Assembly: GCA_008632985.1 (NCBI GenBank)
Contig: QPGO01000235.1
Span: forward strand, 1 to 64,000
Length of the DNA stretch: 64,000 nucleotides
From: Psammoneis japonica
Taxonomy: Eukaryota
Reading direction: 5' to 3'
The notes beneath the pieces are model-generated. The model did no database searches and was not told where the DNA came from. It worked only from the letters and a program-made list of their open reading frames with translations. The first letter of the stretch is position 1; every line of letters begins with the position of its first letter. Positions 11,301 to 37,374 of this stretch are shown here, in pieces. The position numbers and the translations under genes were made by a program.

Positions 11301-11515
11301 AGTATGTTGTAAAAGCGTGGGAGCAGTGGATGGAGTGGGATGCGATTGCAGTGGCAAAGCACCTAGAAAAAAAGTATGCTGGCATTCTTGGTAGCACCAA
11401 ATTGATCCGGTTGGGTGATCAAGGCTCGCTTCTTGGGAGAAATGGATTTCGGAGTCGTTCCCGTTTTTCTGAATCTGCTGCTAAGAAGCATGAGAAGTTG
11501 AACTATGGACCTTAA
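8378..11515 (+). CDS. STAND-like P-loop ATPase (AAA_16/COG3899-type) with helical C-terminal region, copy 1 (frameshifts near 9235 and 10761)
   Basis: Walker A GCSGVGKS, Walker B LLLDDLQW, TDGNIFF and YKFSHDKI. Colinear with the intact paralogue at 12044. Both shifts are short deletions in T or A runs. Confidence 0.85.
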
Positions 11516-12043
11516 GGCTGCTCCTTTTTGGTCGATGTTCCCGAGAGAGACAAACATCCAGTCATAAGGATCTTCTAGTGGTGGATGGCCGCCATCGAGA
11601 CCAAATGTCCAAAACCGCAAAAGAGACAGTCAGCATTTCTTGGTAACGTTGAACCTTTCAGCTTTCACGAGTAGGGAGTGAAGAGCTCTAACTCGGTCCT
11701 GTCCTTTTCCTAGAGTGTTCTCTCTCTTTCACTACTAGTTCTGTATTACCATCTCATAGGAAGACCTCCTTTCTGGAGCTACCTATTACAGCCAGAACAA
11801 CGCGCAACTATCTCGCACGCAACTCGCAACAATCCGCAGAGGTCTCGCAGAAGATCAGATCACCGCGACGACGGTCCTTTGCACCCACATCCTCTAGCTA
11901 GCGGTATTTGCTTCTGTGTTTACTTTTAGGGGATGAGTGAACAGAAGGCAACAGTGTGCACTGTGGCTTATTGCAGCTATGATCATCGATTTCGTTCGCC
12001 GTTTTTAAAAAAGAAAACTTCGCACCGAAAGACCTAATAAAGA

Positions 12044-15000
12044 ATGACACCCGCTGGTCACAGTCAAAGGCGATTGCCTCTGGAAGGACGATTCTTTGCC
12101 CGGTCTCATGAGCTCAGCCGAATACGTTCATGTCTCGAGTCCGAACCTTCAGGCGTAAAAATTGTGCTTGTTTCAGGCTGCAGTGGTGTCGGGAAGTCGA
12201 GATTGCTTCGTGCCGCTCTGACTTCGAGTACCCCTCGATTGATTGGATTCGCAAAATTTGACTCGCGGATTGCTCCGTTGGAAGCCATTCAAGACTGTGT
12301 CGTTGATATTGTTGGAAAGATTCAAGCAAATGAGAATCTTTTGCATTTGGTTCGTCAGCGACTTGGCGATAGCATGGAAGATGAGCAGAAAGACATGTTG
12401 ATGTCTGTCATGCCAGAAACGAGGGCTGTACTTCAGTTCGAAACGGATGACGAAGAAAAGAAGCAAGATGAGAGGTCAATGACGAAGACTATTAGCAGCA
12501 ATAAGCAAAACATGCTACAGCTTCAAATGGCCCTGAAGGCCTTCTTTTTCACGGTAGCTGAATTTGAGAAAGTTGTCCTTTTACTCGACGATCTTCAGTG
12601 GTGTGGTCAAGATTCCTTGGATATTATCTTGTCTGTGTTTACAGAGCCAAAGGCCACCAACATGGTGCTTTGTGGGTCGTATCGGGACAACGAGATCACG
12701 ACTGAACTAAAGACTTTTATGAACAGCATGTCTGACTCTCTAGCATCGCATGTGATATGCTCAGTGACGCTGAAGGCCTTCGATCCAGCAGCCGTCAATG
12801 ACATGCTGGCTTCGCTTTTGAGTGTTGACTTGAAAGGAGAAACGTTCGAGCTAGCGAATGTCATTCATCAGCGCACCGATGGGAATATCTTTTTTGTGAG
12901 GCAGTTTCTTGAAGAGTTACAACGAGAAGGGTTTCTTCGATACAACTTCATGACCTCTCAATGGGAATATGACGTGCAACAGATCCAAAACGAAACGGCA
13001 CTCTGCGAGAACATTGTTCAGATCGTCGCTCAAAGAATCCATCGACTAGACCCGCCCGTCCGGGATATCTTAAAGCTACTTGCCTGCTTTGGATATCGGA
13101 GTAATGAATCGACCTTGGAAATGTGTCAATCGATCTTTCCTGAAATCTCGAATGTGGGCGAGTTACTTCAAGTGGCATGTACCCAAGAGCATCTACTGGA
13201 CGATCTTGGAAATGGATGGTATAAGTTCAGTCACGACAAAATTCTCGAATCTGTCAAGTCCATGCTACCTACTGGAGAGGAGCTTGATAAGCTACACTGG
13301 GATATCGGGATGCTTCTTTTTGGCGCTCTTGATGGTGCAACCATAGATGGTGACCGCCTTCGTTTCATGTGTGCAGACCAGATCAACTTGGGCGGAGCTC
13401 GATTCGTTAAGGGAGAAAAGCATCGTCTTCAGCTTGCCAAGCTCAACTTGGACGCTGCCAAGTCGGCGTCGAGGCTATCGGCGTTCCGTCCAGCTTGTCG
13501 ATACTGCCGAGCTGGAATTGACATTCTTGGAGAGAATGTCGCCGGTTCTTTGCATGTTGCGCTGGACTTGTATGTTCACTTTGCTGAAATGCTGTTTTGT
13601 TGTGGTGATATGACCCGAGCAAGAGAATACTGCGACAAGATCTTCGCGTTTGGAACACTGGAGCACAAAGTCCGATGCTACGTGACCATGTTGCAAATTC
13701 TCTTGTCAGAGGCAAAGAATCGTGATGTTGTCGATTTGGGGTTACGAGCTTTGAAAGCACTTGGCGAAAATGTACCCAAAAAGCCCAACAAGCTTCAAGC
13801 TCTACATAGTTACAAGAGAACAACCAAAAGGCTGAACGATTCCACTATTCAAGATATTCTCCTCGTACCGGTTATGAAGGACTTCGTCAAAGCGGCTTGT
13901 ATTGAAATCATGCTTGCAATGGAGTTACCTATAGTTCATCTCGCAATGATCAATTTGCACACAGTGATTGTTGATCGAATGCTAAGTCTCACTTTCCGTC
14001 ATGGATTGACTACTGCAGCCCCTGAAGCCTTTGCAGTAGCAGGGGCGGACGTCATTGCACAGCGAGACGATCTCAAGAACGGATACCAGCTTGGGAAACT
14101 AGCTGTCTCCTTAGCGGACCGACTAAAAGCGACAAGTGTGAAGGCAAAAGTTCACATGTGGTTCAGTGCTTTCACTCAGTGGTGGGTGGAGCCGCTTGCC
14201 CAGAGTCTCGATTCTGCTTTGAAAGGTTACAATGCCGGACTGGCGGTCGGCGATCAACACTACGCGTTTCACTGCATCACTGCCTACACCACTGCCTACG
14301 TCTATTCGGGCATTCCGCTGTTACCTCTTCTTGATGATCTTGATAAATATGGCCAGCAGATGATTGACTACGGGCAATTTATGGTCTTGTTTTGCGTTAT
14401 TCCAATGTGGCAGTTTGCCTTGAATCTTTGTGGGAAATCTGACGCGCCGCTTGACATGACTCGAGGCTACGCCGTCGACAAACAGAAGCTGGCGGGAAAT
14501 GACGAAAAGATTGGAGAACAAGCTTGTTGGTCATTTCTGATGCAATTGTGCTTTTACTTTGATGACATCAAGAAGGCCAGTGATCTGTCCCAACGGCTTC
14601 AACGCCTTCAAATAGGAATTACACGGGCCGAAGTGTTTTATCCGACAAGAGTGTTCTTTTTTTGCCTTACTGCGATCGAGCAGTTTCGTCGTACAGGAAG
14701 GCGAAAGTTCAAGCTGGAAGCGAAGAAACATATGCGGCAGATTACGAAATGGATAAAGCTCGGTGCGATCAATTTAGTACACAAAGGAATAATTCTTCAA
14801 GCCGAGATAGACTCGCTAACTTCAAAAGACCCTGTTGCCGTTCGATCGAAATACGACAAAGCGATTTCATGTGCCACCCGGAGTGGCTTTTTGCAAGATG
14901 GAGCTCTCGCGTGTCAGCTCGCAGCATCGTTTTGCAGAAAGGTTCTGCCAGACTCTATGGAACAGTACGTATTCAATGCCCACGAAAACTGGATGGCCTG

Positions 15001-15190
15001 GGACGCAATTGCAGTAGCACATCACCTTGAAATGAAGTATTCTGACATCCTTGGCGACAAGGCGAGCTTACGTTTGATGCGATCGGGCAATGAAGCTTCT
15101 CAGAAGCGTGGATGCAGCGGATTCCGAAGTCGCCCCCGCTTTTCCGAATCTGCCGCTAGGAAGCATGACCACTTAGACTACGAGAAGTAG
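12044..15190 (+). CDS. STAND-like P-loop ATPase (AAA_16/COG3899-type), copy 2, intact, 1048 aa
   Basis: Single open ORF with the same motifs. Upstream sequence about 11700-12040 is homologous to about 8095-8370, indicating a tandem duplication. Confidence 0.9.
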   Translation: MTPAGHSQRRLPLEGRFFARSHELSRIRSCLESEPSGVKIVLVSGCSGVGKSRLLRAALTSSTPRLIGFAKFDSRIAPLEAIQDCVVDIVGKIQANENLLHLVRQRLGDSMEDEQKDMLMSVMPETRAVLQFETDDEEKKQDERSMTKTISSNKQNMLQLQMALKAFFFTVAEFEKVVLLLDDLQWCGQDSLDIILSVFTEPKATNMVLCGSYRDNEITTELKTFMNSMSDSLASHVICSVTLKAFDPAAVNDMLASLLSVDLKGETFELANVIHQRTDGNIFFVRQFLEELQREGFLRYNFMTSQWEYDVQQIQNETALCENIVQIVAQRIHRLDPPVRDILKLLACFGYRSNESTLEMCQSIFPEISNVGELLQVACTQEHLLDDLGNGWYKFSHDKILESVKSMLPTGEELDKLHWDIGMLLFGALDGATIDGDRLRFMCADQINLGGARFVKGEKHRLQLAKLNLDAAKSASRLSAFRPACRYCRAGIDILGENVAGSLHVALDLYVHFAEMLFCCGDMTRAREYCDKIFAFGTLEHKVRCYVTMLQILLSEAKNRDVVDLGLRALKALGENVPKKPNKLQALHSYKRTTKRLNDSTIQDILLVPVMKDFVKAACIEIMLAMELPIVHLAMINLHTVIVDRMLSLTFRHGLTTAAPEAFAVAGADVIAQRDDLKNGYQLGKLAVSLADRLKATSVKAKVHMWFSAFTQWWVEPLAQSLDSALKGYNAGLAVGDQHYAFHCITAYTTAYVYSGIPLLPLLDDLDKYGQQMIDYGQFMVLFCVIPMWQFALNLCGKSDAPLDMTRGYAVDKQKLAGNDEKIGEQACWSFLMQLCFYFDDIKKASDLSQRLQRLQIGITRAEVFYPTRVFFFCLTAIEQFRRTGRRKFKLEAKKHMRQITKWIKLGAINLVHKGIILQAEIDSLTSKDPVAVRSKYDKAISCATRSGFLQDGALACQLAASFCRKVLPDSMEQYVFNAHENWMAWDAIAVAHHLEMKYSDILGDKASLRLMRSGNEASQKRGCSGFRSRPRFSESAARKHDHLDYEK

Positions 15191-18205: not shown

Positions 18206-19477
18206 ATGCAAGCTGCCACCATGATGATGTCTGAAGAGCAAGCCGAAAAAGCCGAAGAGCTTCAGGCTTCTCGGTTCCCCGCATGGACCGCACTCATGAT
18301 TTTCTCGTGTGTCGCCTTGATTGCACACACGACAACCGATTACGTCGATGACAGTTCGTCTGAAAAGTGGGTCACGTCGGTGTGTGCCATTTCACTGGGC
18401 ATTTCCTTTTGTGCCATGGTGGCACACTTTGTACCCTCATCCAACTTTGTGGGAGAACCCGCTGAAGGTGGTGGTAAGGCAGCTTGCAGTCTGAATCGCA
18501 TCATTCACATTCGTTTCTTTTTCATTAGAGTTCGCATCCGCAACACCGACAGCACCAACATTGCTCTCTCACAATTTCACAACATGTCATCTTACCTTGC
18601 CGTTATTCTCTCTTTTGCCAGTCGCCTTCTTCATTATAATTTTCTGGGCAGCTGGTTTGCCCGTCATTATGAATCCCAACAACGACATCGCCGTGAATGG
18701 ATTTGGGATCCGCAACGCCAATCTCTACTTTTTCTCGTGGGCGGCCTTTATTGCCAACTTGTACATTCTGGGAGACTTTGCCAAGGCTTCGGATATTGCG
18801 GATGTTACCATGGCTCCGCCCAAGACTGTAAAGTGGTATGGGTTGTTTGCGTCTTCCATCATTGTGCTCGGATCCAGTGCCAAGGTGAGAAATAGTATTG
18901 AATTGTTTTGCATCGTATGATTTATTGGAACTGTAATTTACAGCTTGAGTTATCATGTAATATCTCACACTTCCTTCATACTCTTTTCAATTGTAGTCTT
19001 TTGATTTGTTGAATTGCAACAAGTTTAGCAACTCGACTTGCAATCGCACAAAGTACGCTATTTCTCTCGGTGCGGTTTCTACCTTTTTCTGCTTGTTGCT
19101 TTGTCTCATGTCGTTACGAGGACGAATGCCCACCATTGTAGTGGAACTGTCGGTTAGCTTTGTCCTCTTTGTCATGTATGTATTTGGAGTGGGATTCATC
19201 ACGTTTGGTGAGTATAGCAAGGATTGATTCCTGCTTTTGTGTATTGACTTTTCTCACAACAAACCACTCGTATTGTACTATCCAAAACATCTCAGGCTCG
19301 GGTCCGGGTACTCAATTGGGCAACTTGTACTTTTCCACCTGGGCCGCCTTTGTCGTGTCCATGTTGCTCTTTGCCGAGTGTCTCAAACAATATCTCGTTG
19401 ATGAAGGTGACGAAGAACAAATGGAGGGAGAAGAAGTACCAGAACCGGTCAACGTCGAAGAAGAGGATCAGATTTAG
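18206..19477 (+). CDS. Uncharacterised multipass membrane protein, paralogue 1 (4 exons)
   Basis: Exons 18206-18473, 18622-18884, 18997-19207 and 19296-19477 with GT-AG introns. Motifs WAAGLPVIM, NANLYFFSW, RTKYAISLG and GNLYFSTW are shared with the paralogues. Confidence 0.85.
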
Positions 19478-19865
19478 AGAGACTGGAAAAAAGAGTTGGA
19501 GTATATGCTTGAGGGAGGGGACGGAGGATTGAATGTGAAATGAATAAAAAATGATGGAGAGCTTTTGCTATCCAGATGATTAGTGTCGACACTGTGTTTT
19601 GAGTAGAATACGATAAGAAAAGCATGTGTGCATACCGTATAGAAAAAAAATCAGGTTCTAAAAGTTGTGATTCTCCATTGTCCGTCTCGCAACTTTGAAA
19701 CTGCTCCTCTCATCGCCGAACTTTTCATTCTCCGTCCAGCGTAATTGCTTGTAGCTCAAATCGATTCTTATGCTTTATTCGAATGGTCATAATTTTTCCT
19801 CGACAGCAGAGTAACGAGACGGCTAGAGCTGCAATAAACACTAAATTACTAGTAATACCTAGAGG

Positions 19866-21203
19866 CTAGCTAGTAGAGGGAGAAGAAGGTGGGGGGTGGC
19901 ATGCGCATGTCACGCAATTTTGAACACTATTTGGATCCGATGGGGCCGTCTCTTTCCCAATGCCATTGTCGGTTTCCTCCGTTTTATGCATGATTTTCGG
20001 CTCAGGAGCTACTGCAGTGACCTCTGCCGCTTCTTGAGTGGCGTTGTCGTTATCCTCCGTTTCTTCTTGATTAGACTGGTTGTCATGCTCATTGTGAAAG
20101 TCCAGGTTCTGTAACAGATCCTTAATCACAGGTCCCATGTCATCTTGCCACAACACTTGCTCTTGGCACGTCTCTCCAATCAAAGGAAGCTCGGCACTAT
20201 CAATGTTATCCCAGTCAATACATCGTCCCTCAGTTGGCACATCGTTCAAAAGGCTTTGATTTCTCTCCTGAAGTTGGTTCCAAAGCGTTGCTGGTACCTT
20301 GTCTTTGAGTTGTCGCAGAAAAAATGCAATCTTCTTTCGGTGAAACTCGTGCAAGGCGCCATATCCCTCCGTCTCATCGCCAATGTTTTTGTTTTCGTAC
20401 CCGGGATTCTCTTCTAGGCACGAGCTGTAGCTGTCACAAGTCTCGCAATCGTCCTGATTGCAGCAGTAACACCAGTCTTTGGAGCAGCTCTCACAATATA
20501 TATGAATGCATTCGTCGTCTTTGATGCCTCTTTGATTGCATGACGGACACACCATACGGGAACCCAAGCTTAAGGCTTCCGTCACGGCTCGCCTCAAGTG
20601 TTCTAGATTGGTTGTGTCATTCCGTGAGAGATTTCTCTGAACTCTCATTGTGGCCTGTGCTTCTTGCTGGTAAAGAGTGACTGCGTTTCGAGCAATGGCG
20701 CGTCGCCACCTTTCGTCCACGGCGTCGGTCAATATGCGACGAAACCTTGAGACGGGAAAAGAGTGGCAAGTGCATTCGTCACTCTTGAAAAAGGGGCACG
20801 GAAGTTCTCCAACGCCACTTTGTTGGTTCGCGTCTTCATTTTTTGATTGAATCGCGCAATAAGATCCACCGACTTTCACCGCATTTGACACGTAATTGTT
20901 GAAGCACTCGATGCAGAACGAATGCCGGGATTTGCCGATGCATTCTACGGTCTCTTGTTTGGGTTGCCTGTCGCCGCAAGTGACACATGCTGTAAAAGAC
21001 ATCTTTGTACACTTACTGTTGTCGTCACTATTTTTGCTACTAGTTGTCTTTTTAATGGATGGAAACGCCTTTAACCCAATAAAGCATTCGGAGCAGAACG
21101 CTTGGTCCCGCCCTCGCGGACCGTGATACGTCACAGCCGCTGGCTCTGAGCAAACGGAGCATAAAGCTGTTGTGACGCTCATCGTCGTAGATATTGCCGT
21201 CAT
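19866..21203 (-). CDS. Cys-rich RING/RBR-like E3 ligase-type protein
   Basis: RING1-like CVTC..C..HSFCIEC..CP and RING2/Rcat-like CPSC..IKDDECIHIYCESCSKDWCYCC. Confidence 0.7.
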   Translation of the reverse strand: MTAISTTMSVTTALCSVCSEPAAVTYHGPRGRDQAFCSECFIGLKAFPSIKKTTSSKNSDDNSKCTKMSFTACVTCGDRQPKQETVECIGKSRHSFCIECFNNYVSNAVKVGGSYCAIQSKNEDANQQSGVGELPCPFFKSDECTCHSFPVSRFRRILTDAVDERWRRAIARNAVTLYQQEAQATMRVQRNLSRNDTTNLEHLRRAVTEALSLGSRMVCPSCNQRGIKDDECIHIYCESCSKDWCYCCNQDDCETCDSYSSCLEENPGYENKNIGDETEGYGALHEFHRKKIAFFLRQLKDKVPATLWNQLQERNQSLLNDVPTEGRCIDWDNIDSAELPLIGETCQEQVLWQDDMGPVIKDLLQNLDFHNEHDNQSNQEETEDNDNATQEAAEVTAVAPEPKIMHKTEETDNGIGKETAPSDPNSVQNCVTCACHPPPSSPSTS

Positions 21204-23176
21204 GATGACTACGATACAAGTCACGTTGTTTAATGGCTGAGTGCTTTTTGTGGCTTTGTAGATGTAAGTTACGCAACGAAACGTGCACTTTTTGTGACGA
21301 GGAGTCAGTCGTACCGGCACATCAGAAGCACGACTCAGAATGATGTCATGTCGGCATTTTTGTGCATGCGGCTCATTACCTTAACTTTTTCCGTACCCAC
21401 GCGGTTTCGCGCGATTGCCCTATTTAAACAAAATTTTCAATTATGAAGAATACCAACATAAATAACAAAACTTTTCTATTCAAATAAATACAAATAAATG
21501 TGTGCTGTTTCGACCGTGACAGTTTTGTCTAATGGCATTACAAGCCCTAGGACAGACTTTGGACCTGTATATTGGACAATTGCGAAGAGATCCGTGCCCG
21601 GAATACATCTGAATGGACTAGGGCAATAGAGTGCAAAAAAGTGACGGACAGACGCATGCATACTGGGGACGTATGTACCGGTAGACACCATGGAAGAGTG
21701 ACTTTTGGCGATAATTTCCGAAATCTTCGGTCCTATTCAAAGTTTTGCATGTTATGCATAGGTTTTGTCAGCAGGGCTGTGCACCCTGCTTCATAAGTGT
21801 CTAAACTAAATGTCTATGGGTCGAAATGTGTTAAGCCGAGTCATTCTTCTGAAGCTGCTGACAAAGAGGAAAGGCAACATTTTCTATTCAAATAATATAA
21901 CACCAGGAAATATGTGATTAAATATATAAATAATAATGAAATAACAATTACACTTGAGTTAATTAGAGAAAATACCGGGACAAAAAATTTTGTCCCGCGG
22001 GCACCTAAAAAGTTAAACTGCCCAGGGCCCTCTCTCTGTTAAAGAGCAGCCAGCGGTGGCCTCTGTCCAAGGTCAGAAATCTCACTTCATCATTGCTGGA
22101 TGAGAACCGAGAACCAAGAAAGTCCAAGCCCCCCATCAGCGGCTGAGCTGTCTTCCATTTTGTGCCGCACAAAGAAGTTTTGACTGGCCTTTCGTGCACA
22201 GCATGAGTGCCATTTGCGTGACCCATGCGTTGTGCGACAACCAAAATGATCACACAGTCAAGCTGGTGCATCGGGGGGGGGGGGGGGCGAATTTGGGAAT
22301 CCCCCACCGGCTGATGAGCAGATCACTGTCTGGGAAAAAGGTGTGTGAGGAGTGTGAGCACGCAAATTTGTTTGTGACAAGTCGGTCCAACTTGTCACAA
22401 ATCACACCTGTTCGTGACAAATGGATGTGATTTGAAACAACAAACGTCTTTTGCTTCCCAATGAACATCCAAGTTTGCAAATCAAGAGCAGGCCAACTTG
22501 GCAAATTTGGCACGAATCAGCAAGTTGATGCCAACAAAGCACTCCATTTGATGTTTGCAGTCAACTGCTGACTGAGAATTGATTGGCTGACTGATGTTTT
22601 TAAATGACTGATTTGTGATGTGCTGCTGCAACTCATTTTCAATCTGTCGTCTAAAATGCAGTTCTACAGTGGGGCACTGCCATGTGATCTGCCATCGAAC
22701 AATGCAGCTGCTGCCATTTGTTTTTTGTCCACTGAGCTGCTGTCAACCACCAAGCTGCCATCAACTCCAGTTTGCGTGTCTTTGCACAGTTTGCCATGTG
22801 GTCTCCCTCATCATCCAGTTCATTGAGTTCTTCTTCCACTTCTTTTCTGTGGTTTTCCAGAGTCATCCTCCCACTGTGCAGCTGTCCTCCCATTGGCCAA
22901 GCCACCCATTCTCAACCTCTTGTTTGATGTCCATGCAATCCTTCCTTGAAGAAGTTGTTTGCCCTTGGTGACCCCCTTTGCTCTTTCTTGGCATCTTTCA
23001 TCACTGCTTCCCACTGCCTGCACCTTCCTCCATTGCATTTGAGTGGCCAAACATGAAGTGCTTGAGCCATCTCATGTGCACTGTCTTTTTTTTATGAGTT
23101 CCTTGCTGGGTGGTCCCCTGTGGTGGTCGAGCTCATTCATGACTTCTGTCAAAGCAAACAGCCAGTCCTTTGTTTT

Positions 23177-23466
23177 CTGGAGGGAGAAGCACCAGAGCCA
23201 GAACTCAATGTCAAAGAAGAGGATCAGACTTGGGGATTCAAAAAGTCTGAGTTGGGAGTGAATGGCTGAGGGTGGGCTGGGGAACAGAGGATTGGCTGTG
23301 AAATGAATCAGGTTGAGGGAGAGCTTTTGCCACCCAGATGATCAGTGTTGATGCCATGTTTTGAGCAGGATGTGATGAGAAAAGCACATCAGTTTCTAAA
23401 AGTTGTGGTTCTCCATTGTCAGTCTTGCAAGTTTGGGGTGCTGCTTTTTCCTCTCTTTGCTGAACC
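23177..23466 (+). pseudogene. Hypermutated copy of the last codons and 3' flank of the membrane-protein gene at 18206
   Basis: Aligns to about 19422-19720. The stop in GATCAGATTTAG reads GATCAGACTTGG, and TA and CG sites are converted to CA/TG. Confidence 0.85.
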
Positions 23467-23546
23467 ATCAACTCTGTGGCACACCCAGTGCAGATGCTGG
23501 CAGCTCAAATTGATTCTCACTTTTGGTTTGAACAGCCCCAATTTTG

Positions 23547-23577
<31 letters not shown>
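23547..23577. repeat. (CT)n microsatellite
   Basis: About 15 CT units. Confidence 0.9.
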
Positions 23578-23579
<2 letters not shown>

Positions 23580-24399
23580 CCAGACAGCAGAGTGATGAGA
23601 AGACTGGAGCTGAAACAAACACTGAACTGCTGCCCAACCTGAAGGGGAAAGAGGGCGGGAGGGTGCTTCAGACAGCCAAGTTGCCTTTCCCACATGATTT
23701 CTCATGGGTGGCATGCCTGCACACACACCCCTCATGGAGGAGTCACCAGCCCATCTCCCCTGCCTCCATTCTCCTCCATTCCAGTTTTGCACAGGTGTGG
23801 CAAGTGGGTGAGGGAGCTTCTCTTCTTGACAAGAAACAGTCTGGCTGTTGTGTGCTGTGTGTCAACAGAATCCAGCAATCTGCTTGGCTCCAGTGCTCTC
23901 ACTGTGTGTGCATGGCAGACAACAGAGTGAGCCACATCCACATCACAGCACCCCACAGAGATCTTGATCTTTTCACCAATGACACATTGCTTGACAGCCA
24001 TCCATTTCCAAGAGGAGTTTCTGGTGAGCCAAAAAAACAAGCTCAGAATCTCCAAACACCCACGCAACCCACGCATTGTGTGATGACCAAAACAACCTTG
24101 TGCAGTCTGGCTGATCCTCTCTGGGGATTCTTCATGCAGGAATGATGCCCTCAGCCAGACTTCATGCACAAAACTGTGTTGTCAACAGTGCTGAAATTTT
24201 GTGGGAACACAATGCAATGCATTGTGGAACCCCAACCCAGAGCAAGCAGATGAGAAACTCTCACCTTTCAGACATTTTCCAGTTCAAAATTTTGCACAAT
24301 GACTTGAGGAAACTTTGGTCTGCTCATTGGCTTGCCATTTTTCTTCCTCTGCTTTTCCAGTTAAATTTGTTGCAAAGCACCAACGGTGAGTCTCGACTT

Positions 24400-26600
24400 A
24401 GAATGTTCAACGTTGCTCTTGTTCTCCTCATGCTCAACATTCTGTCTGCAAAGGCAAAATTTTCACCTGGTTGCAAGAAACCAGAAAACAATCCTTCTGA
24501 GATTTCAACATGCCAAGATTTACAGAGTGTCAACACAAGCAGCCTTGACAAACACTGCATCTTGGTCAATGACATTGTGGTGGATCCCGGGCATGGACTG
24601 CCATTGATTGGCTGCACCACTTCTAGATTCTGCAGAGGCTTTGATGGGAATGGTGGGCATTCAACAAAACAAAACATCATGGTCCACAACCTCATGATTG
24701 ACAACCCAACAGGCAGATTTGCCATGACCACTGATGAGGGAGTCCATCTCTGTGATGTTGCAATCTGCAACTCCATTGTGAAAAGCGCTGGAACGGGAAA
24801 CTCTCCATCATGTGCTCTTGTTGCCGAGTCACACTGGAGCACAATCTCTTGCTGTCATGTCCTTGGGGGCAGCATTGCTGGATGCAGCAACCATGGTGTT
24901 GGTCTTGTTGGTGAAATGAATGGTGGTTCCATTCAAGAGTGCAGTGCAGAGGGTGTCTCAGTCATGGGAGGCAACAACCTGTGGACTGGTGGTTTGGTTG
25001 GAAGTGCTGACAGCAGTGCAAGGATTGCCAAATGCTTTGCAAGGGGCAGTGTCGCTGAAGGCCATGATCATGTTGGGGGGCTTGCAGGGCGGGCAAGCAG
25101 GGATTTCTTGCTCTGTCCAAGACAGTCATGCAATGGGTGGCGTCATTGTTGTGGGTTGCCCTGAAAAATGCAGCATGGGTGGTGGTGGACTCACTGGTTG
25201 CTTGTCATGCTGTGCTTCCATTTAGAACTGTTTTTCTGCTGGCAAGCTCTTTGGTGGCAACAAAATGTGTGCAGTCTGCCTGTCTGACAGAGCCAGCAAT
25301 TGGTTTGGCACTCCTCACCTCAACACCAATTGTCAGTGTTGAGGCAGTTGGAAATTCAAGACATTTTGAAGATCAAGGCAATGAGTCATTGTTGAGTTGG
25401 AGAACAGGGGTGCATGGGTCTTTGGCAAAAACAACTGTCCAACCTTGAAGTGCCTGCAAACAGCTCCCGACACATTGACGCCCATGGTCCGCGCAGTTTG
25501 GATTGTCCCAACCAACCCATCCAACCAAACCAAACCATCACCACAGCAGTTGACAGCTGTTTTTGGAAGCCACACAACAACAAGTGCTTTTCAGAGGTGC
25601 ACAAATCATCTGTTGTTGTTTGCACATGCGCACTTGCACACTCAGGCCAGTGTGCAATGCTCTTTTGCAGACCCAAACATTGTCCTCCCTGTGCTTGTGT
25701 GCAGCAGCCTCAACAAAGCCACGACCACAGTGAGAGCTTGTCTGGTCACCGCCATTGATGAAGGCCAAGTTGAAGACTGCACCGCTGTCATTGCAACATC
25801 AACTCTGTGTGGGACCAGGGCAAGCAATCTTTGCAAGATTTCTTCACACAGAGATCTGAAAGACATTGAGAAGAATGGTCCAGATTTGCACCATGCATTG
25901 ATGAAGGACATTGTGGCTGACAATGATGTTGTTTTCCAGCCTGTTGGCTCTCAGAAGACTCTGTTCATTGTTTCATTTGATGGGAGTTGGCACACCATTT
26001 TGGGGTTTGCACATGGAGAAGGGACAAAGTGGCAAACATGATGTGGGGCTCTTGACAACCATTGGTGGGATTTGTGCAAGCCTCAACATTGCGGTCCACA
26101 ATCTCAGTGTCAAATCCACAACCATGGTTGGTGGTCCCAATGGCTCAGGCACACTGGCCGGAGTCATCTGTGGCAATGGAGTTTGCATCAAAAACATTGC
26201 CATTGCCAGCTCAACTGTGAGAGTTCATGCAGTTGGTGCACTTGTGCTGCAGGAGCAGTTGGAAGTGCTTGGAAAGAGACAGAGACATTGTGCTGCTGCT
26301 CAAATGGTGGAAATCTTGCAGGAAGTCAAGGTGGCCTCATTGGACAGGGGTGTTGTGGAGTTGCAATCCAAAAGTCAAGTGCAGATGACGTCACTTTCAG
26401 AGGTTCTGTCACTTGCAGTGGCTTGATTGGCACCCTTTTTTTTAAAAAAGGGCTGCAGTTGAAAACAGCTTTGCAAGCAGTGGAATCATGGGATGCAAGC
26501 ACTCTGGCGGCCTTGTGGGTTGTTCATTGGGCTGCTCCTTGTTCTTGTTCCCTTGGAAACGGATTGTGAGCAGACCAAGGTTCTTGCTCAGAGCACAAGT
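24400..26600 (+). pseudogene. Degenerate secreted GLUG-motif protein gene with two domain copies
   Basis: Signal-peptide-like MFNVALVLLMLNILSA; EISTCQDLQ..HCILVNDI; FDGNG; GGLVG..GSV..DHVGGLAG. Second copy: ISSHRDLKDI..HHALMKDI..FQPVG..SFDGSWHTI. Frameshifted, with His/Cys at positions where Tyr is expected. Confidence 0.65.
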
Positions 26601-29546
26601 GAGTGTGTTGACAATGCTTTTGCATGCCAACAAACATTGATGGTTGATGGTCTCATCTGCTCAGCACTTCCAGCTGGAGCACCGTGCATGTGCGTGTTGC
26701 TGGATGGTGTTTTCTGTCCTTGGTTGGGACAGCAACTGGTGCACCAGTGACAGCTGCAACGAAAATGCGATGTGTTTCTCTCTCACAATCAGAAGACAAT
26801 CAGGTTCTCATTGACTGCACTGTTTTTGTTGTCATCATCTGTGAGATGTCAGCTTGTTCTGACTGTCACATTGGTGTTCATTGCCTTTGTCAGAACCACA
26901 CCAACCAGGAGCATGCTGATCAAACAAGTGTGCAATGTGGTGGTGCCCTGCCCCACAAATGCTGCTCCTGTTGTCCTGGTTGTGTTTTTGTGTTTGATTG
27001 TGGTGTGGGTTTGCCAGTCACAGGAATGGCACTGGACTGCACATGTGTAAAATCCGCCAAGATTTTGAGGACATGGCGAGCAAAGCTGTGGTGGGTGCTT
27101 GGCACTTGGCTGGCTGGCCTTCCTTTTTCTTCAACAAGTGTGTCAACAACTTCCAGGCCTGGTGCAGTGGCACCAGGATTGTGCAAAAAGAGGTCAACCC
27201 TTTGGTGTGGGCAGCTTTGATCAGGCAGCTGTGGCTGCCATGCATGAGTCAAGAGCACACTCAGAAGGCTGCAGCTGAGCAACATGCAGGTGGTGGCAGC
27301 TGGCAAGGATCAGACTGACAAAGCTCTGCAAGCCAGATGGCATTGATGCGCACAAGGATGCGCTCTTGAATTTGTTGTCACAAAAGCACTTGGTGTTCTG
27401 AAAGAGCCATTGAGGTGCAATGCAAGGAACATGGATGATTTGCTGGCAAAATTTGTTGACACTCAGGAAGAGCACATGTGTCAGCTGCCTTTGGCTGGCA
27501 ATGCAATGCATTTTTGACCATCCCAGGAGACAACAGCCAACACAAGTGTGTCGTGCCTTGAAAGAACATCTTGTTGATGCAACAAGATGGGCATGGACGG
27601 AGCTTTTCAACAAAGTGGAAAGCAGCGAGGCACATTTTGGATGTGGTCAAGTCATTGGAATGGTCAGGGCAACTGTGCTGCACAACCAATGTCAAAATCA
27701 TCTGTGAGAATGTGGGGACATTGAGTTGTGCTCAAGAAGTGCACAGAGAAACTTGCCAGTGCATTCTTTGCAATGTTGGCTTTGGGATCTGGATGATTGC
27801 CTGTCATGCTGTTGTCAGCCAGCAGTGCCCTTGTGACTTCAGGGGGGGCCTTCAATGCCGGAGCAAGTTGGAGGCTTCAGGAGGAGGGGTTGACAAATGG
27901 ACAACCAAATGTGCAGCACTTGCCCCTTCTTGGAGTTGCACAAGCCAGTTCAACAACAAACACCTGTGGTGTGATGTTGTGCTGTTTGGACTGACCTGAA
28001 AACTGCTTGTGAGTGCACCCACTTGTTGGTGGCCAGATGTTGTGGTTCAGTGCATGCTCACATGCAACATTCCATGCTGAGCCTCAATCAGCTGCTCATG
28101 CAAAATGTTTGCATGCATGACAACCCTTGCACACAAGGACACTCAGAATTAATTTGCTTTTTAGACAAACAAAGCTTTCATTCCCCTTAAAGTGTCTTGT
28201 GGGTGGTGGTTGCATCATTTGAGTCTTGTGTTCCAATGGACTGGGAAGAACAAAAATCACCCACTGCTGTTCTTGCAGGTGACACATGGGACCCAACAGG
28301 GGTCAACATGCCAGCTCCTCTGTGTCAACTTTGGAGTGTCATTTCCAGTTGCATGATCCACATGATCACAATGCACACAAACCACACTCACAGAACCAAC
28401 CAGCCTGTCACAGAGCATCCAAAAATGATGAGTTGGGGAACCATGGGTGAGCTCCACTTTAACTTCACCTCATCCACCTGCTGACAATTCTGCCCCTTTT
28501 TGCACCTGAGGTTGCTGAAACCTGCCTCCATGACATTTGAGAAGTTGGCAGCCAAACATTGTGCTGCCAAAAAAAAAAAACGTTCAGTGCAGCCACACAC
28601 AGCACAGAGTTCATGTGAAGACTCAACCTGCATCTGGGAGCTGGGAGAGTGAGAGTGGGTCATCTTGACTTGCAATGAAAGCAATTGGATTCGCTCATGT
28701 CAAAAAAGATGAAGTGTTTGCTTGGGAACACATTTGCCAATGTCTTTGCTCAAGGCAAGTTTGTTGAGGTTGTGCCAACAACAGTGAGATTGGATGCTGG
28801 ACAATCTTTGGTTGACACTTTGCAGATGATGTGGGTGTGCCAGAGCATCTGATTGTGGAGCGGAGCTTGCAGGTCCTGACGCTGAGCTTGTGAAGCATGC
28901 CAGAGGTGCATGAGGAGAAGCCTGAACCATTTGATTGCCACAAATGAGTGGCAAACAAAGATTGACACGTTTTTCTAACTTTTTGACTGTGACAATGAGA
29001 GAAACACGTCAGGGATTGATCAAAACACCATCCAATTGTGCCACTGCCCATGGTCACATGTCTCACTTCATTGTCACTGGATGAGAATCAAGAATTGTGA
29101 CGAGTGTTCAGTCTGCTTGTAAGAAGATTTTATGAGCAGCTGATAAAAGAGCTAGAGCAGCTGAAGTACGAGCGAATGTCGAATGAGCGGCAAGGGTGAC
29201 CACAATGCCAAACGCATCCACAGTCTGCGCCATCGGAGAAAACCGCGGCAAACACAGGGTCATGAAAGAAGAGAGAGTCTCGTAGGGCCCTACGTTGCAA
29301 CAGTCAGACGACGAGGTGCAAGAGCGACATGCAGCGTCCACGAACTCTCGCTAAATGTGTCGCAAAGACTTGCTAACAGTAGCTACTAACTTCTACCGTA
29401 AGTCAGGATAAGTGCTTCTGTCACACTCTTTTTCCAGTAACTTCTACACCTCCGACTTAACTTACTTTCCGTCACTAGTTCTTCGCAGAGATAAGAATAT
29501 TCTCGTCGGCGGCGTTGCGTGCCTCTTGGCAGAACTTTGGCCAGCT

Positions 29547-29850
29547 ATGGCTATCGACAATAATTCACAGCTCCAGAAACTGAAGGCAACGAAGCCGTGC
29601 CAGTAACTTCCATTGGGACACAGCAGATTCGCCATCTTTCTCCTCCTTTATCTGCTGAAACTCCCGAATTTTGTCTGCGATTGTTCGTGCCCCTTCGCAG
29701 ACCTCTGGTCAGGTATCGCTATCGACAATTCACAACTCAAGAAACTGAAGCCAACGAAGCCGTGCCAGTAGCTTCCATTGAGGCACAATAGATTGGCCAT
29801 CTTCCTCCTCCTTAACTGCTGAAACTCTAGAATTGTGTCTGCCATTGTAT
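29547..29850. repeat. Diverged tandem duplication (about 167-bp spacing)
   Basis: GCTATCGACAA..GAAACTGAAG..CAACGAAGCCGTGCCAGTA..CTTCCATTG occurs at about 29550 and about 29718. Confidence 0.75.
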
Positions 29851-30750
29851 CTTAACTTGCCGGAATATGAAACAAAAGCCATATAACCATGCGTCCCGAG
29901 AAATTCACGTTCACAGTGGCCTTGTCGGCTCCCATTGATACAACACCTAGCCTGGTTGCGAATCGGCCAAAGCCAGCGAGCATCTTTTGTTCCCGATCCA
30001 TGACAGAAGTTTGTCTTCGTTGCCTACAACCAAAAATTTGCCAGGTCCATGGAGAGTCTTCCAACATTGTAGGCCCAAACTGGAACCGCAAAGATAACGA
30101 TGATTTCGACAAAGATATGATGACCGGCGGTTTGCCAACTTGCCACACTGAAATAAGCAATCTCTGTGAAGTTCGATTTTTCATAAAGCATTCCATACCG
30201 TACAGAATTCCTGCCGCCAAGGCAAATATCAACAGGATTGTCGCAATGATCCAACCGTACTAGTCAGCAATCGATGTTGTTCCTAGCTCCTGTGCGTGGA
30301 TCGCAGACGCATGCTTCTTTTACAAAAAAAGCCGAATCAATGGCCTTCTCAAAAAGGCCTGGCACAAAGAAGGCAATGGATATTGATCCAAGAAATAAAA
30401 GAAGTATGACGAAGATCTGCATTCCTTTATCATGGAGATTCAGCGCTTCGTGCCCAACGCCAAAACCTGCTTGAATAAAAAAAAGCAAGCGAAGTCCCGT
30501 TGATTTTTCTGAAATAACTTGTTAGCAATTCAACCAAACCCGTTTCTGGGGATTTTTCACGCGGGAAGCGAGTTGTCAATAAGCACGAATGGCGTACGTT
30601 TTGTGCCCCAGAAGATGATTTCGGTCACGGCTCAGCTCCCTGATAATGCTTACTCGATAGTACTCTGGGTTCCTTGAGCACAAAGGCGGCAAAGTCGATG
30701 CGGTTTCAATCCTTTGGGAGCTCAATTCTACAAAAGCTAAAAGCACCATA

Positions 30751-32121
30751 TCACAAGTGTTTGATCCACTTTCGTTTTGCCCTTCGTCTTCCAGTTCCCG
30801 GTTTTTCTGTAGGATCCGCACGTACCCATCCCAGGTTGGCAAAGAGTTGTTGAGACGCCTCGTTTCCATCACGGATAAAAGCAAAGCACTCTTCCTGCCT
30901 TCCTACACTGGCTGCAGCCTCTGTAAGCAGTGCCGTGGCGTAGCCACGTCGCCGATAGGCTTCGTCCACATGTAGCATGCCAATTGAGCCATTGTGATAG
31001 CGCATAATAGACGCACACAGCTTGTTATTGACTTGAATTCCAAAGCAGCCGACACCCGCCTCGATTTGTTTTTCAATCATTTTGAGTGACTTTTTGGAAC
31101 GGTGCGGCCAGCGTGAGTCCACGTATTCTGCATCCGATACTGTCAAGGGACGCAGTATGGCCCCGTCATTAAGTACAATGCATTCTTGTGCGTCGTATGG
31201 CTCACTAGTAGTACCAAATATTTCTTTTTCAATTTCGAGTCGACGTTGTCGCTTCTTGCGTGCATTCTCTCCTCGATTTAAAAACCTCGGATCTGCGTGA
31301 GAACTCGACGAGAACCAAAGATGCTTTTCCACCAGTGTTTGGAGTGCCTCGTGTAAATGCCGAGATGCCTCTTGAGCTGTGGCTTTGTTGGGCTCCAGCA
31401 GTTGCAAAGCTCGGGCACAGGCTTCGAGCGTTGACAGACAGTGCCCCTGTGGCTCTCTTCGAATCGCGTCATAAATCGATTTTGAGTCGCACGAGAATTG
31501 TACTTGTTGACAGCAATCCAACAAAGCTGGAGAGTTTCGAACCATGGCTCGAGCCTGAGTCCAAGTTCCATCAAAGAGAATCAGCATGTTGGGCTTATCA
31601 CTTTCTTTGGTAAGCAGAGATAGCCGACCAACGGTACCAATTTCCTCATCATCATTCGACTCTACAGGCCCGTCATCCAAGGACAATGCGTCGGGCCCAG
31701 GAAATAGCAAAAATAGTTGTTGATTATTTTCAATGGCTTGTCGAATAGCATCGACTTGATCCGGTTCAAAGGTATGCCCGACTCGTACGGTTGCATTCTG
31801 TAACACCAGTGACACCAGAGGAACAGTCGAAAAGGTCCTTCTTCGAAATTCGGCTGGATGTTGGAGAATTAAAATTTGAGTGGCGGTTTGTATTTTTTGT
31901 TTTGGTAACGTAGAACATACGCATTGGACCGGAGGCCGACGGCAGCGACTGCACAAGTCTCGAGTAGGAGTGCGTCGCTCGAGAGCACGGCGTTCTCCCT
32001 TGGCAATGCTTGATGCTACCTTTGATCGTAATCTAGCCTCGTAACTGCTACCGGTACTACTCAAGCCACTGACAATGGCTATGCAGAGAGTCGTGAGTGT
32101 CAGGAACGTTAGTATACTCAT
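30751..32121 (-). CDS. DTW-domain tRNA aminocarboxypropyltransferase (TapT/DTWD2-like) fused to a C-terminal GNAT acetyltransferase, with N-terminal targeting peptide
   Basis: CSRCRRPPVQCVC, ILQHPAE, LLFPG, DGTW and LSTLEA mark the DTW domain. IGMLHVDEAYRRRGYA and NEASQQLFANLGW mark the GNAT domain. Hydrophobic leader MSILTFLTLTTLCIAIVSG. Confidence 0.85.
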   Translation of the reverse strand: MSILTFLTLTTLCIAIVSGLSSTGSSYEARLRSKVASSIAKGERRALERRTPTRDLCSRCRRPPVQCVCSTLPKQKIQTATQILILQHPAEFRRRTFSTVPLVSLVLQNATVRVGHTFEPDQVDAIRQAIENNQQLFLLFPGPDALSLDDGPVESNDDEEIGTVGRLSLLTKESDKPNMLILFDGTWTQARAMVRNSPALLDCCQQVQFSCDSKSIYDAIRREPQGHCLSTLEACARALQLLEPNKATAQEASRHLHEALQTLVEKHLWFSSSSHADPRFLNRGENARKKRQRRLEIEKEIFGTTSEPYDAQECIVLNDGAILRPLTVSDAEYVDSRWPHRSKKSLKMIEKQIEAGVGCFGIQVNNKLCASIMRYHNGSIGMLHVDEAYRRRGYATALLTEAAASVGRQEECFAFIRDGNEASQQLFANLGWVRADPTEKPGTGRRRAKRKWIKHL

Positions 32122-32582
32122 GGTTGATGGAGGTTGAGAGCGCTGCGCCGATGGCGATGATCGATGATGTTCAATGTTGCATGATTGTCGCGTGTCACTA
32201 CAGTATGTACCGGTACTGCGTACGGTAGGGCCCTACCATCAGTGTCGGAGGGAGGAGGGAGTTTGGCGAGTTTGCAGATTCACGGATGATGGACGGACAG
32301 GGACTTTCGCGCGTTGTGATTAGATTTGCGCGCGAAAGTCCTGTGCAGTCTTGGGCGTGACGTGGAACTCAGTACATTTTCTACGGAATCCTGACATCCA
32401 CGAATCAGGCGCCATCTCATGCAATGTCTGGATGGATGAGAACCACAACGAAAAGAACGACAAGACACACATAAACATCACGGAAGAGAGCGAACGGGAA
32501 AGAACTCATTTTGTGTATCCAAGAATAGAAACAAGAGCCTAATCAAACACCTCTTACTGTATTGATCAACAGAAGCATCACC

Positions 32583-33709
32583 ATGGCCCCCGATCCCAAC
32601 AATCGATTCATGTCTTGGTGCGCCTTGGCCGTCTTTTCTGCGGTATGTTTTAGTGTTTTGATTTGTGAATATGATCATGTTCTCGTTTCAAATCTGGTGT
32701 CAAGCACAAGTCGTGTCTGGATCTTTTGCAATCCTGTGAAACTCTTGTCTACTCTGAACCGTTCAGTGCTTCCTCATTCTCTTTATTACAGGTTGCGCTG
32801 ACGGCGTTCCAGACAGACAGTGACTCGGATGACAAGAGCACATCGGACAAGTGGGTCCTCTCCGTGACGGCCATTTCCATGTCGTTTGCCTTTTTCGCCA
32901 TTGTCGCGCACTTTGTGGTACGAGACGGCTTTGAAGGCAAGGCGGCCGAGATTGGCTTTGCCGGCTTACTCATAATTTTCTGGGCGGCTGGTTTGCCAGT
33001 CATTATGGATCCCGATAATGGATTGGCGCAAAGCAAAATTGGAGGAACGTTTTTCATTGAGAATACCAATCTCTACTTTTCATCATGGGGTGCCTTTATT
33101 GCCAATCTCTACATTGTAGCCAGTCTCGCCAAGGATCAGGGTGTGGCGGATGTGTCCAAGGCTTCGAAAAAGACCACAATGTGGGTGGCACTCTTTGCCG
33201 CATCGGTCGTTGTCATGGTGGCCAGCTCGAGGTACTACAAGTCCGTTTGTGACGACGGAACCAACACGTGCAAGAGGACCAAGTATGCCATTAGTCTTGG
33301 TGCGATCGGAACAGTGTTTGCCATGGTTATGTCCTTCATGACAATCAAGGACATGTTAAACCTCATGTGCGAGTCTGTCATGTCGGTGTTGCTTCTCGCC
33401 ATGTATTGCTTTGGTGTCGGCTACGTGACATTTGGAGATGGCCCAGGCACGGCCATTGGCAATTTGTACTTTTCAACATGGGGAGGCTTTATTGTGACCA
33501 TGTTCTTGACTGTTGGTTGCATCAGGGAACAATTCTTTTCCGATGATGAGGATGAAGGTGTCGGTACGTAAATGTGCTTTCTGCGTTGTTGCTCAACGTG
33601 TACGTGCGCTTTTCCTTACATCTCCTTGTTATATTGGTTGATTGATGCTTCAGCACCCCCTGAAACCAACCCAGAATCCCAGCAAGTGGAGGAAGTCCCC
33701 AAGGTCTAA
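32583..33709 (+). CDS. Uncharacterised multipass membrane protein, paralogue 2 (3 exons)
   Basis: Exons 32583-32643, 32792-33564 and 33654-33709 with GT-AG introns. Same motifs as paralogue 1. Confidence 0.85.
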
Positions 33710-34039
33710 GGTTATGGAAAGTACTGTACGGTATTGACATGCATTGGTTGATATATTCACAAGTAGCTCTCGAAACCCTGGGCACGATAATGGATTGATC
33801 TTTATCCCAACACCTAACTACATAGAGTATATATTTCACAATTCCGGTTTCTCTTCAACTGCAATGTAGTAGTAAACGAGATCTTAGGCTTTCGATTACA
33901 AAACCCACCACAATAAGTCGGGACCCGCCAATTTTCCTATTGCCCAACCCTTGATAACTGCGAGGGAACTTGGGGAGAGAGCACTCTTTATGACTATTTT
34001 GTTTCTGATGTATATGAAAAATTAACAACATTGACATGC

Positions 34040-34430
34040 ACGAGATCGAATCTCGGTGTCTTTCATGTCTCTCATTTGATTACCTAACAGCAGCGTAAAT
34101 AGTACACAGCTATGGTTCGATAAAGCGGTCTGAGAAGCCGGTTGGTGGTGTCTACTGGGCGCAGACGAAATCACATCATTGGCTACGAAGCAAACTAGAC
34201 AGCTTCCATTGTCTTGTTGTACCTCTGTGTCAATTCCCGTCTCTTGACAATTGTCAATCGCGGCCGTTGATCAAACTGCATAACCTTTTTAAGACTCTGT
34301 ACGGGGGCCAACATCCACAGCAACGACTTCCGGGAACCTACCAAGAAGTCTGACGCAAGTATCAAAGAGCCGGGTTCCGACAAAATGTCCTCGATTGCAA
34401 ACCGGCAGTTTAGGTATCGTGTTTTTGGCA
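34040..34430 (-). pseudogene. 3' fragment of the gene relic also present at 44700-44940
   Basis: IEDILSEP..MQFDQRPRLTIVKRREL matches 44700-44930. It is part of a segmental duplication (about 32400-34430 versus about 42780-44940). Confidence 0.65.
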
Positions 34431-34859
34431 ATGTCAATTGACTCGAACGACTTGTCAATTCAAAAACTGCAAGGTAAGTGAGTGGTTTCCTCTGCTGCTT
34501 TTGTTTCTGGTGCAATGGCTGGTTGAACCCGGTCAACCGGCAGTCTATAATCACAACCTGGAATAACCACAATTGTTTCCTCTTGTTTTGTCAAATGCGG
34601 TTCAAGTATATTTAAGGAAACCCCCTTGTTTTCGCCTGTTTCAAGCTCTGTTTTTCTCATTTATCAAATTTATTCGCTCAAATAACCCTCTCGATAAATC
34701 ACATTCGATGCCGAAAATGCCCAGAAGAGTCGTCAACATGAGCTCACAGCGACGGCTCACTCATCCATAAAAAGAAAACAACGCCAACCATCATCTGATG
34801 TCGGCATGCGCTTTCAGATTTCCCACAGTGCTTGTTCATTTTGTTACCACCAGCACGTT

Positions 34860-37306: not shown

Positions 37307-37374
37307 ACTGCCAGCAGAGAACTTTGCCAGCAATTTGATTGCTTGTGCACCATCGCAATGTCAACGACGTGTCA

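Follow-up and report, generated by a model that had tools for sequence, protein, structure and literature searches.

The closest described counterpart of the mutational signature considered here comes from the chlorarachniophyte Bigelowiella natans. As set out in the main text of a preprint, 231 of the 302 new nuclear single-nucleotide mutations in mutation-accumulation lines of this organism fell within two integrated viral regions, and 230 of these 231 were A>G or T>C changes, all of them at TpA; new mutations arose in the clonal lines at about 1000-fold above background (Mettrop et al., bioRxiv 10.64898/2026.01.13.699255, 2026). The same text describes 124 genomic clusters that are depleted of TpA, enriched in CpA and TpG, and enriched for transposase and reverse-transcriptase domains, gives a Rho of 0.45 for a nucleocytoplasmic large DNA virus (NCLDV) region, and proposes, as a hypothesis, an ADAT2-like DNA adenine deaminase (bioRxiv 10.64898/2026.01.13.699255). 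It mentions neither diatoms nor stramenopiles, and neither CpG nor trinucleotides; its supplements may hold extended motifs. Here we describe a diatom in which this signature is found at saturation: the stretch analysed (hereafter, the window) comprises positions 1 to 64,000 of contig QPGO01000235.1 from Psammoneis japonica (assembly GCA_008632985.1), and it contains discrete TA-poor blocks, one of which holds a copy of the 3′ end of a host gene of the same window, here termed gene A. Literature searches naming diatoms found no diatom report of a TpA to TpG/CpA signature, and a search combining TpA with adenosine deaminase returned the B. natans preprint as the only relevant paper; the signature was known before only from that source.

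In B. natans, as here, TpA is converted to TpG or CpA on both strands within discrete regions; in both organisms, depletion of TpA together with enrichment of CpA and TpG forms the long-term footprint, and transposase or reverse-transcriptase genes are touched. There are also differences, as far as the main text of the preprint extends. B. natans belongs to the Rhizaria, whereas diatoms belong to the Stramenopila; the loss in the window is near saturation, with TA odds of 0.03–0.12 over 39% of its 64 kb; the targets here are a DNA transposon, unassigned DNA and a captured fragment of a host gene, and the viral-contig and profile searches turned up no viral gene; CpG decay accompanies the loss of TA; and the host original, set beside its copy, indicates that the target is a genomic place.

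Other processes offer further points of reference. In ascomycete fungi, repeat-induced point mutation (RIP) converts CpA/TpG to TpA, such that TA rises, and it mutates both copies of a duplication. Like the process described here, RIP kills mobile DNA through saturating, context-specific transitions and leaves behind blocks of skewed dinucleotide content; its sign is the opposite, however, as the TA odds in our blocks are 0.03–0.12 and those of CA/TG 1.4–1.9. A-to-I editing by ADAR in animals, and by ADAT2/ADAT3 (TAD2/TAD3) in mRNA of the fungal sexual stage, shares with the present case the change of A to G and a strong preference for a 5′ U/T, and the TAG to TGG change that the copy shows at the stop codon of gene A is a typical product of such editing; but the substrate of these enzymes is RNA, and genomic DNA is not altered by them, whereas here the changes are in DNA and affect both strands. 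Finally, APOBEC3 editing of retroelements and the CpG decay of methylated repeats bring about C>T/G>A decay of mobile DNA, driven by a deaminase or by methylation, and the corresponding component in the window looks like ordinary decay of 5-methylcytosine (5mC): CG has given way to TG/CA in the copy of gene A, and CG is depleted in the blocks and not in host DNA. Both of these processes leave TA alone, whereas in the window it is the loss of TA that is primary and that occurs, in places, without loss of CG.

Gene A, its copy and the TA-poor blocks

Gene A (18206–19477, + strand) is an intact host gene according to exon chaining guided by an intronless paralogue. Its four exons (18206–18473, 18622–18914, 19024–19207 and 19296–19477) are separated by GT-AG introns of 148, 109 and 88 nt and encode 308 aa, the stop codon being TAG at 19475–19477. 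The product is predicted to be a MARVEL-like multi-pass membrane protein, and has environmental homologues (P0001–P0005) at 50–55% identity. The last 56 nt of its coding sequence and ~420 nt of 3′ flank (19422–19898, + strand), as delimited by alignment and composition, recur at 23178–23665 on the same strand, and this homology is longer than the original prediction had proposed. In a local alignment of the two segments, 335 columns match, 96 do not and a further 103 contain gaps, which corresponds to 77.7% identity. The source segment has a host-typical composition, with 22 TA and 15 CG in the aligned columns and a GC content of 0.418, whereas its counterpart has one TA, one CG and a GC content of 0.483. 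The latter lacks the upstream gene body, reads TGG (23231–23233) at the position of the TAG stop, and carries a (CT)n microsatellite inserted, relative to the source, at about 23548–23577; its alignment, dinucleotide fates and composition mark it as an apparently non-functional, hypermutated duplicate fragment of the gene A 3′ end and downstream flank.

Between gene and copy, TA and CG fare very differently from all other dinucleotides. Only 1 of 22 TA is kept, with eight replaced by TG, eight by CA and five by other dinucleotides; none of the 15 CG is kept (10 TG, 3 CA and 2 AG). All dinucleotides except TA and CG are kept in 251 of 377 instances (Fisher's test against this figure: p=4.5e-9 for TA and p=1.3e-7 for CG), and CA (12 of 17) and TG (20 of 27) are retained like the rest. 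From gene to copy, A>G and T>C together number 45, whereas G>A and C>T together number 20; outside TA and CG the two sequences differ at 57 of 354 sites (16.1%). The prediction had quoted a stretch of 66 nt, within which all five TA are indeed changed (three to CA and two to TG) and both CG read TG in the copy; upstream, a GTA codon (Val) in the gene is GCA in the copy, as had been described, and the reported exchange of the stop codon is likewise present. The quoted strings are both found, that of the copy starting at 23321 as given and that of the gene at 19559, one base beyond the 19558 originally assigned to it.

The copy is part of a wider pattern. Two-state segmentation calls eight TA-poor blocks, which total 24,983 nt, or 39% of the window. 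Expressed as dinucleotide odds per block, TA lies at 0.03–0.12 in these blocks and at 0.5–0.7 in clearly host DNA, two further short stretches that the segmentation also called host having values of 0.29 and 0.39. The CA/TG odds are 1.4–1.9 in all blocks but the shortest (CA 1.12, TG 1.55), and the CG odds are 0.16–0.90, compared with about 0.95–1.2 in host DNA. The blocks occupy 1–1446, which runs off the window start (TA odds 0.05, CG 0.37), 4264–6622 (0.03 and 0.60), 22041–29119 (0.04 and 0.16, with CA 1.90 and TG 1.79), 34860–41787 (0.12 and 0.57), 45494–46210 (0.07 and 0.69), 47517–50845 (0.08 and 0.41), 51756–54005 (0.11 and 0.90, the CG being almost normal) and 61932–62806 (0.11 and 0.77).

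The copy of gene A lies in the third of these, 22041–29119, which has 17 TA in 7079 nt, as against ~38 per kb in host DNA, and in which CA and TG are nearly doubled. The flank of gene A has ordinary host composition, yet this 7.1-kb block, most of which is unrelated to gene A, is largely without TA and CG. Its left edge is sharp to tens of bases, with consecutive TA at 22040 and 22601. The block has a pair of imperfect terminal direct repeats (22041–22113 and 29023–29094, both + strand), which match at 78% over 55 nt without gaps, and over 73 nt with one gap; the zone free of TA starts exactly where the left repeat does. The segment 22041–22513 has no TA but 16 CG, the remaining 6.6 kb of the block having 49 CG; at this end, therefore, the loss of TA reaches beyond that of CpG, or runs faster. 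Taken with the low TA and almost normal CG of block 51756–54005, this makes the two losses separable. Remains of a frameshifted gene with GLUG motifs are recognizable at 24115–25164 and downstream (Pfam Glug, E=2e-5; read-through translation). The terminal repeats, together with the sharp edges, suggest that the block is foreign or mobile. It is present as a single copy that is contiguous with host DNA, the depth being 67.8 in both block and host flank in X1, the one DNA sequencing run that carries the window sequence (two others of the same sample have next to none of its words, and no RNA run carrying it is listed).

Adjoining the left edge of the block is an element (21381–22016) resembling a miniature inverted-repeat transposable element (MITE), with 21-nt terminal inverted repeats that start with TTAA. 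It is TA-rich, with a GC content of about 0.41, and is not hypermutated; its depth in X1 is 581–767, or about tenfold the single-copy value of ~68.

As regards the other blocks, 34860–41787 contains an open reading frame (ORF) for a Mutator-like transposase (34698–36098, + strand; Pfam E=8e-9), an ORF of an unnamed family (37378–38610, − strand) and high-copy repeat ends at 38.3–39.7 kb; the part of block 4264–6622 at 5399–5870 is an 82% copy of 38885–39355. At about 39850–41500, block 34860–41787 also includes a GC-rich (0.62) tandem array with an X1 depth of 360–470, open frames of 250–620 codons on both strands, and a strong skew of TG over CA (TG odds 2.58). A further GC-rich stretch, containing two tandem 237-nt units of 97.5% identity (46330–46802), lies between two of the TA-poor blocks.

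Direction of the changes

An alignment of two sequences does not, by itself, reveal which has changed. The original prediction had taken the gene to be ancestral, and a direction from TA to CA/TG, and from CG to TG, is the best-supported one: in its favour are the composition of the blocks, the loss of Tyr from their coding sequences, a DNA relative of the transposase, the discordance between repeat copies and the intactness of gene A. Both Tyr codons contain TA, and a single transition turns either into a codon for His or Cys. The ORFs of the blocks have a Tyr content of 0–0.7%, with raised His and Cys, as opposed to 1.4–3.5% Tyr in host ORFs. In the ORF at 37378–38610, there are 12 columns with Tyr in at least two of four homologues, and the window reads His at five of these, Cys at four, and Trp, Phe and Tyr at one each; moreover, an Arg present in all four homologues faces a His (CGN to CAN). 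The five consensus-Tyr columns of the Mutator-like transposase ORF read Cys twice and His, Phe and Thr once each.

A DNA outgroup is available for the latter ORF. The search of metagenome contigs for relatives gave 413 pattern matches, one of which was confirmed; this contig, L001, carries an unmutated environmental relative of the transposase ORF, with 15 Tyr, TA odds of 0.52–0.81 and CG odds of about 1. When the two are aligned by codons over 1119 nt, 2 of the 41 TA of L001 are kept in the window ORF (11 have become CA and 10 TG), compared with 330 of 1015 other dinucleotides (p=4.5e-5), and its 14 aligned Tyr codons read Cys (five), His (five), Phe (two), Trp (one) and Tyr (one). Additionally, the repeat copies at 5399–5870 and 38885–39355 disagree at 13 of 99 TG/CA sites, whereas the corresponding discordance is 7 of 496 and 7 of 288 in two pairs of host duplicates (p=1e-6 and 1.6e-4, respectively); independent resolution of ancestral TA or CG after the copies had separated would be expected to give such a pattern.

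For the gene–copy pair, a comparison can be made with the five protein homologues of gene A, the tails of which are poorly conserved. Two of the five have Val in the 'EVP' motif where the copy has Ala, and one has Ala; another ends in Ile-stop at the same position as gene A. These tails hint that the gene represents the ancestral state. Gene A also has two paralogues in the window (32675–33571 and about 43148–43940), but these are unusable as outgroups for the pair because their homology to gene A ends at 19417, just before the duplicated part. They are carried by a segmental duplication (32451–34414 and 42847–44934; 73% identity), each member of which is followed by a TA-poor block. In the second paralogue (about 43148–43990), a straight read-through meets in-frame stops after ~200 codons, which implies either an intron or a pseudogene. 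Overall, the Tyr-poor ORFs of the blocks, the replacement of Tyr by His and Cys in conserved columns, L001, the discordance between repeat copies and the host-level TA and CG densities of the gene-side segment lend strong, if indirect, independent support to a change from TA to CA/TG with the gene as the ancestral state.

Several public proteins have a similar constitution. Among 76 relatives of the Mutator-like transposase, five (P0021, P0022, P0031, P0040 and P0041) have less than 0.6% Tyr and raised His and Cys, P0021 having His or Cys at four of the five consensus-Tyr columns; in P0009, a relative of the ORF at 37378–38610, several of the columns with Tyr are occupied by His, Cys or Trp. 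Other public sequences thus seem to have undergone the same decay of Tyr codons.

Properties of the process and alternative explanations

Host duplications within the window provide a control. Between 8099–11505 and 11702–15180 (85% identity), TA is kept at 74 of 124 and 74 of 119 sites, and between 32451–34414 and 42847–44934 at 40 of 76 and 40 of 90; the retention is symmetric in both cases. As the host duplicates show no such asymmetry at TA, the process is not RIP. Indeed, unlike RIP, it has left the source gene and two host duplications untouched, and it has mutated a single-copy block while sparing a multi-copy MITE-like element with about tenfold depth. Repetition is, therefore, not the trigger, being neither necessary nor sufficient for hypermutation. 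Since gene A and the other host duplicates are unaffected and the copy in the block is converted, the target must be a location or domain, and not homology or repeated sequence, which again separates the process from RIP. The first of the control pairs is a 3.4-kb tandem duplication of a STAND/AAA_16 NTPase gene, both copies of which have ordinary composition.

Both strands are used equally: the ratio of TG to CA products is 8:8 in the gene–copy pair and 10:11 in the L001 pair, and in the copy A>G changes lie intermingled with T>C changes within tens of bases. With each change assigned to the strand on which the A lies, A>G in the gene–copy pair affects 19 of 47 sites with a 5′ T, as compared with 10 of 82 with A, 5 of 43 with C and 10 of 72 with G (25 of 197 for all non-T neighbours). 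The TA that survive in the blocks are also unevenly distributed over sequence contexts. Relative to host DNA, their density is 0.02 for TAT, 0.08 for TAC, 0.14 for TAG and 0.29 for TAA; by tetranucleotide, it rises from 0 for ATAC through 0.01 (ATAG), 0.013 (ATAT), 0.036 (GTAC), 0.053 (ATAA), 0.11 (CTAC), 0.16 (CTAG), 0.20 (GTAA) and 0.35 (CTAA) to 0.72 for TTAA. The most saturated block retains 17 TA, of which 15 have a 3′ A or a 5′ T, a share that amounts to 567 of 1409 in host DNA. Tentatively, a 3′ A next to the target A slows the reaction; the predominance of TTAA, CTAA and GTAA contexts among the surviving TA may reflect such a rule for the 3′ neighbour, or else later TTAA-specific insertions. 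ADAR prefers a 3′ G, and a disfavoured 3′ A, as the surviving TA indicate, is a different bias.

We consider it probable that an in-place, region-targeted process has converted TA to CA/TG in discrete blocks. Whether the initiating base is the adenine bears on the strongest of the alternatives, namely, that the base damaged is thymine or one that bears a modification. T at TpA could be oxidized to 5-hydroxymethyluracil (5hmU), which mispairs with G, or N6-methyladenine at TpA could be deaminated to hypoxanthine; unmodified adenine would be deaminated by neither route. TA is self-complementary, so that T>C and A>G are indistinguishable and every count given above fits either, and in dinoflagellates T is preferentially replaced by 5hmU at TpA. 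Nothing in the material examined pointed to such modifications in diatoms, however, and the B. natans preprint favours, as a proposal, an ADAT2-like deaminase; we regard a lesion of this kind as unlikely.

Less likely still is that transcripts of the elements were hyperedited from A to I at the RNA level, by an ADAR-like enzyme or by an ADAT-like one as in fungal mRNA, and were then reverse transcribed and re-integrated, with no editing of the DNA as such. A preference for a 5′ T (U) does fit adenosine deaminases acting on RNA, a point that is also made in the Discussion of the B. natans preprint, and the blocks have sharp, element-like ends. Nevertheless, a single edited RNA strand, once retrocopied, would yield changes of one kind only, whereas here A>G and T>C are interleaved and TG and CA are equal in number; a DNA transposon, with its Mutator-like transposase, and a single-copy block are among the sequences affected; and the 13 discordant sites among the 99 of the two repeat copies were evidently resolved after these had separated. 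ADAR itself is known from animals only. With regard to movement through an RNA intermediate, no reverse transcriptase was seen among the window ORFs scanned for domains.

It is highly improbable that no mutation took place here at all, the blocks being foreign DNA from a donor that avoids TA and CG, or else an artefact of assembly or base-calling at modified bases. In its favour, profile searches do not establish the origin of the 22–29 kb block: nothing but the Glug motif passes in Pfam searches with 16 of its ORFs, PHROGs and NCBIfam give nothing above noise for 14 ORFs, and a search of viral contigs produced 27 pattern matches, none of which was confirmed. Moreover, the only run with the sequence, X1, may be the source of the assembly itself, and its platform is not on record. 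Against both versions, however, the block includes a piece of host gene that shows the same loss, and the replacement of conserved Tyr by His or Cys, together with the disrupted frames, means that the block sequences have decayed from coding sequence that contained TA. In addition, a k-mer contig of 6925 nt from X1 spans 23589–30476, and hence the edge of the block, with 0 differences and host-like depth, and Tyr-free relatives occur among independent public proteins (five of 76 homologues of the Mutator-like element, or MULE). Within 22334–29119, the X1 contigs contain no variants except G>A at 22381 and 22384, where there is a single covering contig (depth 69.5); the comparison was made with contigs, which drop rare variants, and so it says nothing on ongoing mutation.

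Equally improbable is the reverse polarity, in which the TA/CG-free state would be ancestral and the TA and CG at the 3′ end of the gene would be later acquisitions, as might result from RIP-like C>T changes at CpA/TpG. An alignment with a TA-free partner is compatible with this in principle, but the gene-side segment stands at host equilibrium (22 TA and 15 CG in 431 nt) at a divergence of 22%, and therefore could not have been reached from an ancestor free of both; there is no known mechanism for the gain of CG from TG; gene A is intact; the block lacks TA and CG over 7 kb that are mostly unrelated to it; the independent outgroups in other blocks all indicate a change from TA to CA/TG; and the copy has Ala at a position that is Val in two of the five protein homologues. 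Three further explanations were considered and rejected, namely, GC-biased gene conversion, selection against TA and ultraviolet TA photoproducts, as none of them explains the combination of block confinement, TA specificity and coding loss.

Several observations nevertheless weigh against the reading that we prefer, a regional conversion of TA in place. There are ~26 A>G or T>C changes outside TA in the gene–copy pair, as against seven G>A or C>T outside CG, and a strict TA rule fails for these; the excess may stem from a less intense activity outside the motif, or from changes that the gene-side segment underwent later. The pair is also without a DNA outgroup, its polarity resting on context and on the other blocks. 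The block at 22–29 kb offers a GLUG motif only, with no transposase or viral match in the profile searches. Furthermore, the effect of the 3′ neighbour is not visible in the two polarized pairs, in which 9 of 31 sites with a 3′ A were edited compared with 32 of 95 with other bases (T 10 of 34, C 15 of 37 and G 7 of 24); the rule is based, therefore, on the context of the surviving TA.

Outside the blocks, the host ORF at 30754–32232 (− strand) encodes a DTW domain, of the tRNA-uridine aminocarboxypropyltransferase type, fused to a GNAT acetyltransferase domain. The fusion is common to most of the diatom and environmental relatives among the matches listed. The affinities of this ORF mark the window as diatom nuclear DNA, from a species that lacks a close named relative among the public proteins searched. 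The best match has 57% identity, and the named relatives are all diatoms: Amphora (49%), Entomoneis (45%), and Nitzschia, Thalassiosira, Seminavis, Skeletonema and Corethron (42–43%).

Proposed mechanism and significance

The observations can be accommodated by the following sequence of events. The 3′ end and flank of gene A would have been duplicated, and the duplicate would have become part of a discrete 7.1-kb unit, now 22041–29119. This unit and the seven other blocks would then have been driven near to saturation by a regional process that turns 5′-TA-3′ into TG or CA, presumably through an A to G transition on either of the two strands. CpG would also have decayed to TG/CA in most blocks, via a second, separable process, probably deamination of 5-methylcytosine in methylated repeats. 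The target would be a place or domain, namely, sharply bounded DNA of a mobile, foreign or silenced kind. It is a matter of observation that the signature exists, that it is restricted to blocks, that both strands are used to the same extent and that copy number plays no part, and the protein and DNA outgroups in the other blocks point consistently to the direction of change. The chemistry is argued by analogy: a TadA/ADAT-like enzyme that deaminates DNA adenines at TA, of the kind suggested for B. natans, would produce such a pattern, and we rate adenine deamination of DNA as the mechanism at a little below an even chance. No deaminase gene is present among the window ORFs scanned for domains. 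The hypermutation would plausibly act as a genome defence.

Some consequences are practical. As TAA and TAG have gone from the TA-poor blocks, gene finders would call long false ORFs within them, and homology searches will miss decayed transposons unless changes from Tyr to His or Cys are allowed for. The pair formed by gene A and its copy is, in effect, a natural before-and-after experiment, in which the host original has remained untouched and the copy in the block has been converted.

The occurrence of the signature in a diatom extends the process to a major group of ocean primary producers, and suggests that it is widespread. A bolder proposal, which we hold to be possible though rather less than evenly balanced, is that diatoms possess a genome defence that writes to DNA: a nuclear adenine deaminase, aimed at chromatin domains and not at repeats, would erase 5′-TA-3′ on both strands, largely sparing TTAA, and would thereby strip mobile or foreign DNA of its codons for Tyr, and of all stop codons but one, independently of cytosine methylation. 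If a DNA adenine deaminase is responsible, then the enzyme would be of interest to the builders of base editors, and a diatom defence of this type would supply, from nature, an adenine editor active on double-stranded DNA. Taken with the findings in B. natans, such a defence would make TA-directed editing of DNA an old trait across the stramenopile, alveolate and rhizarian (SAR) lineages.

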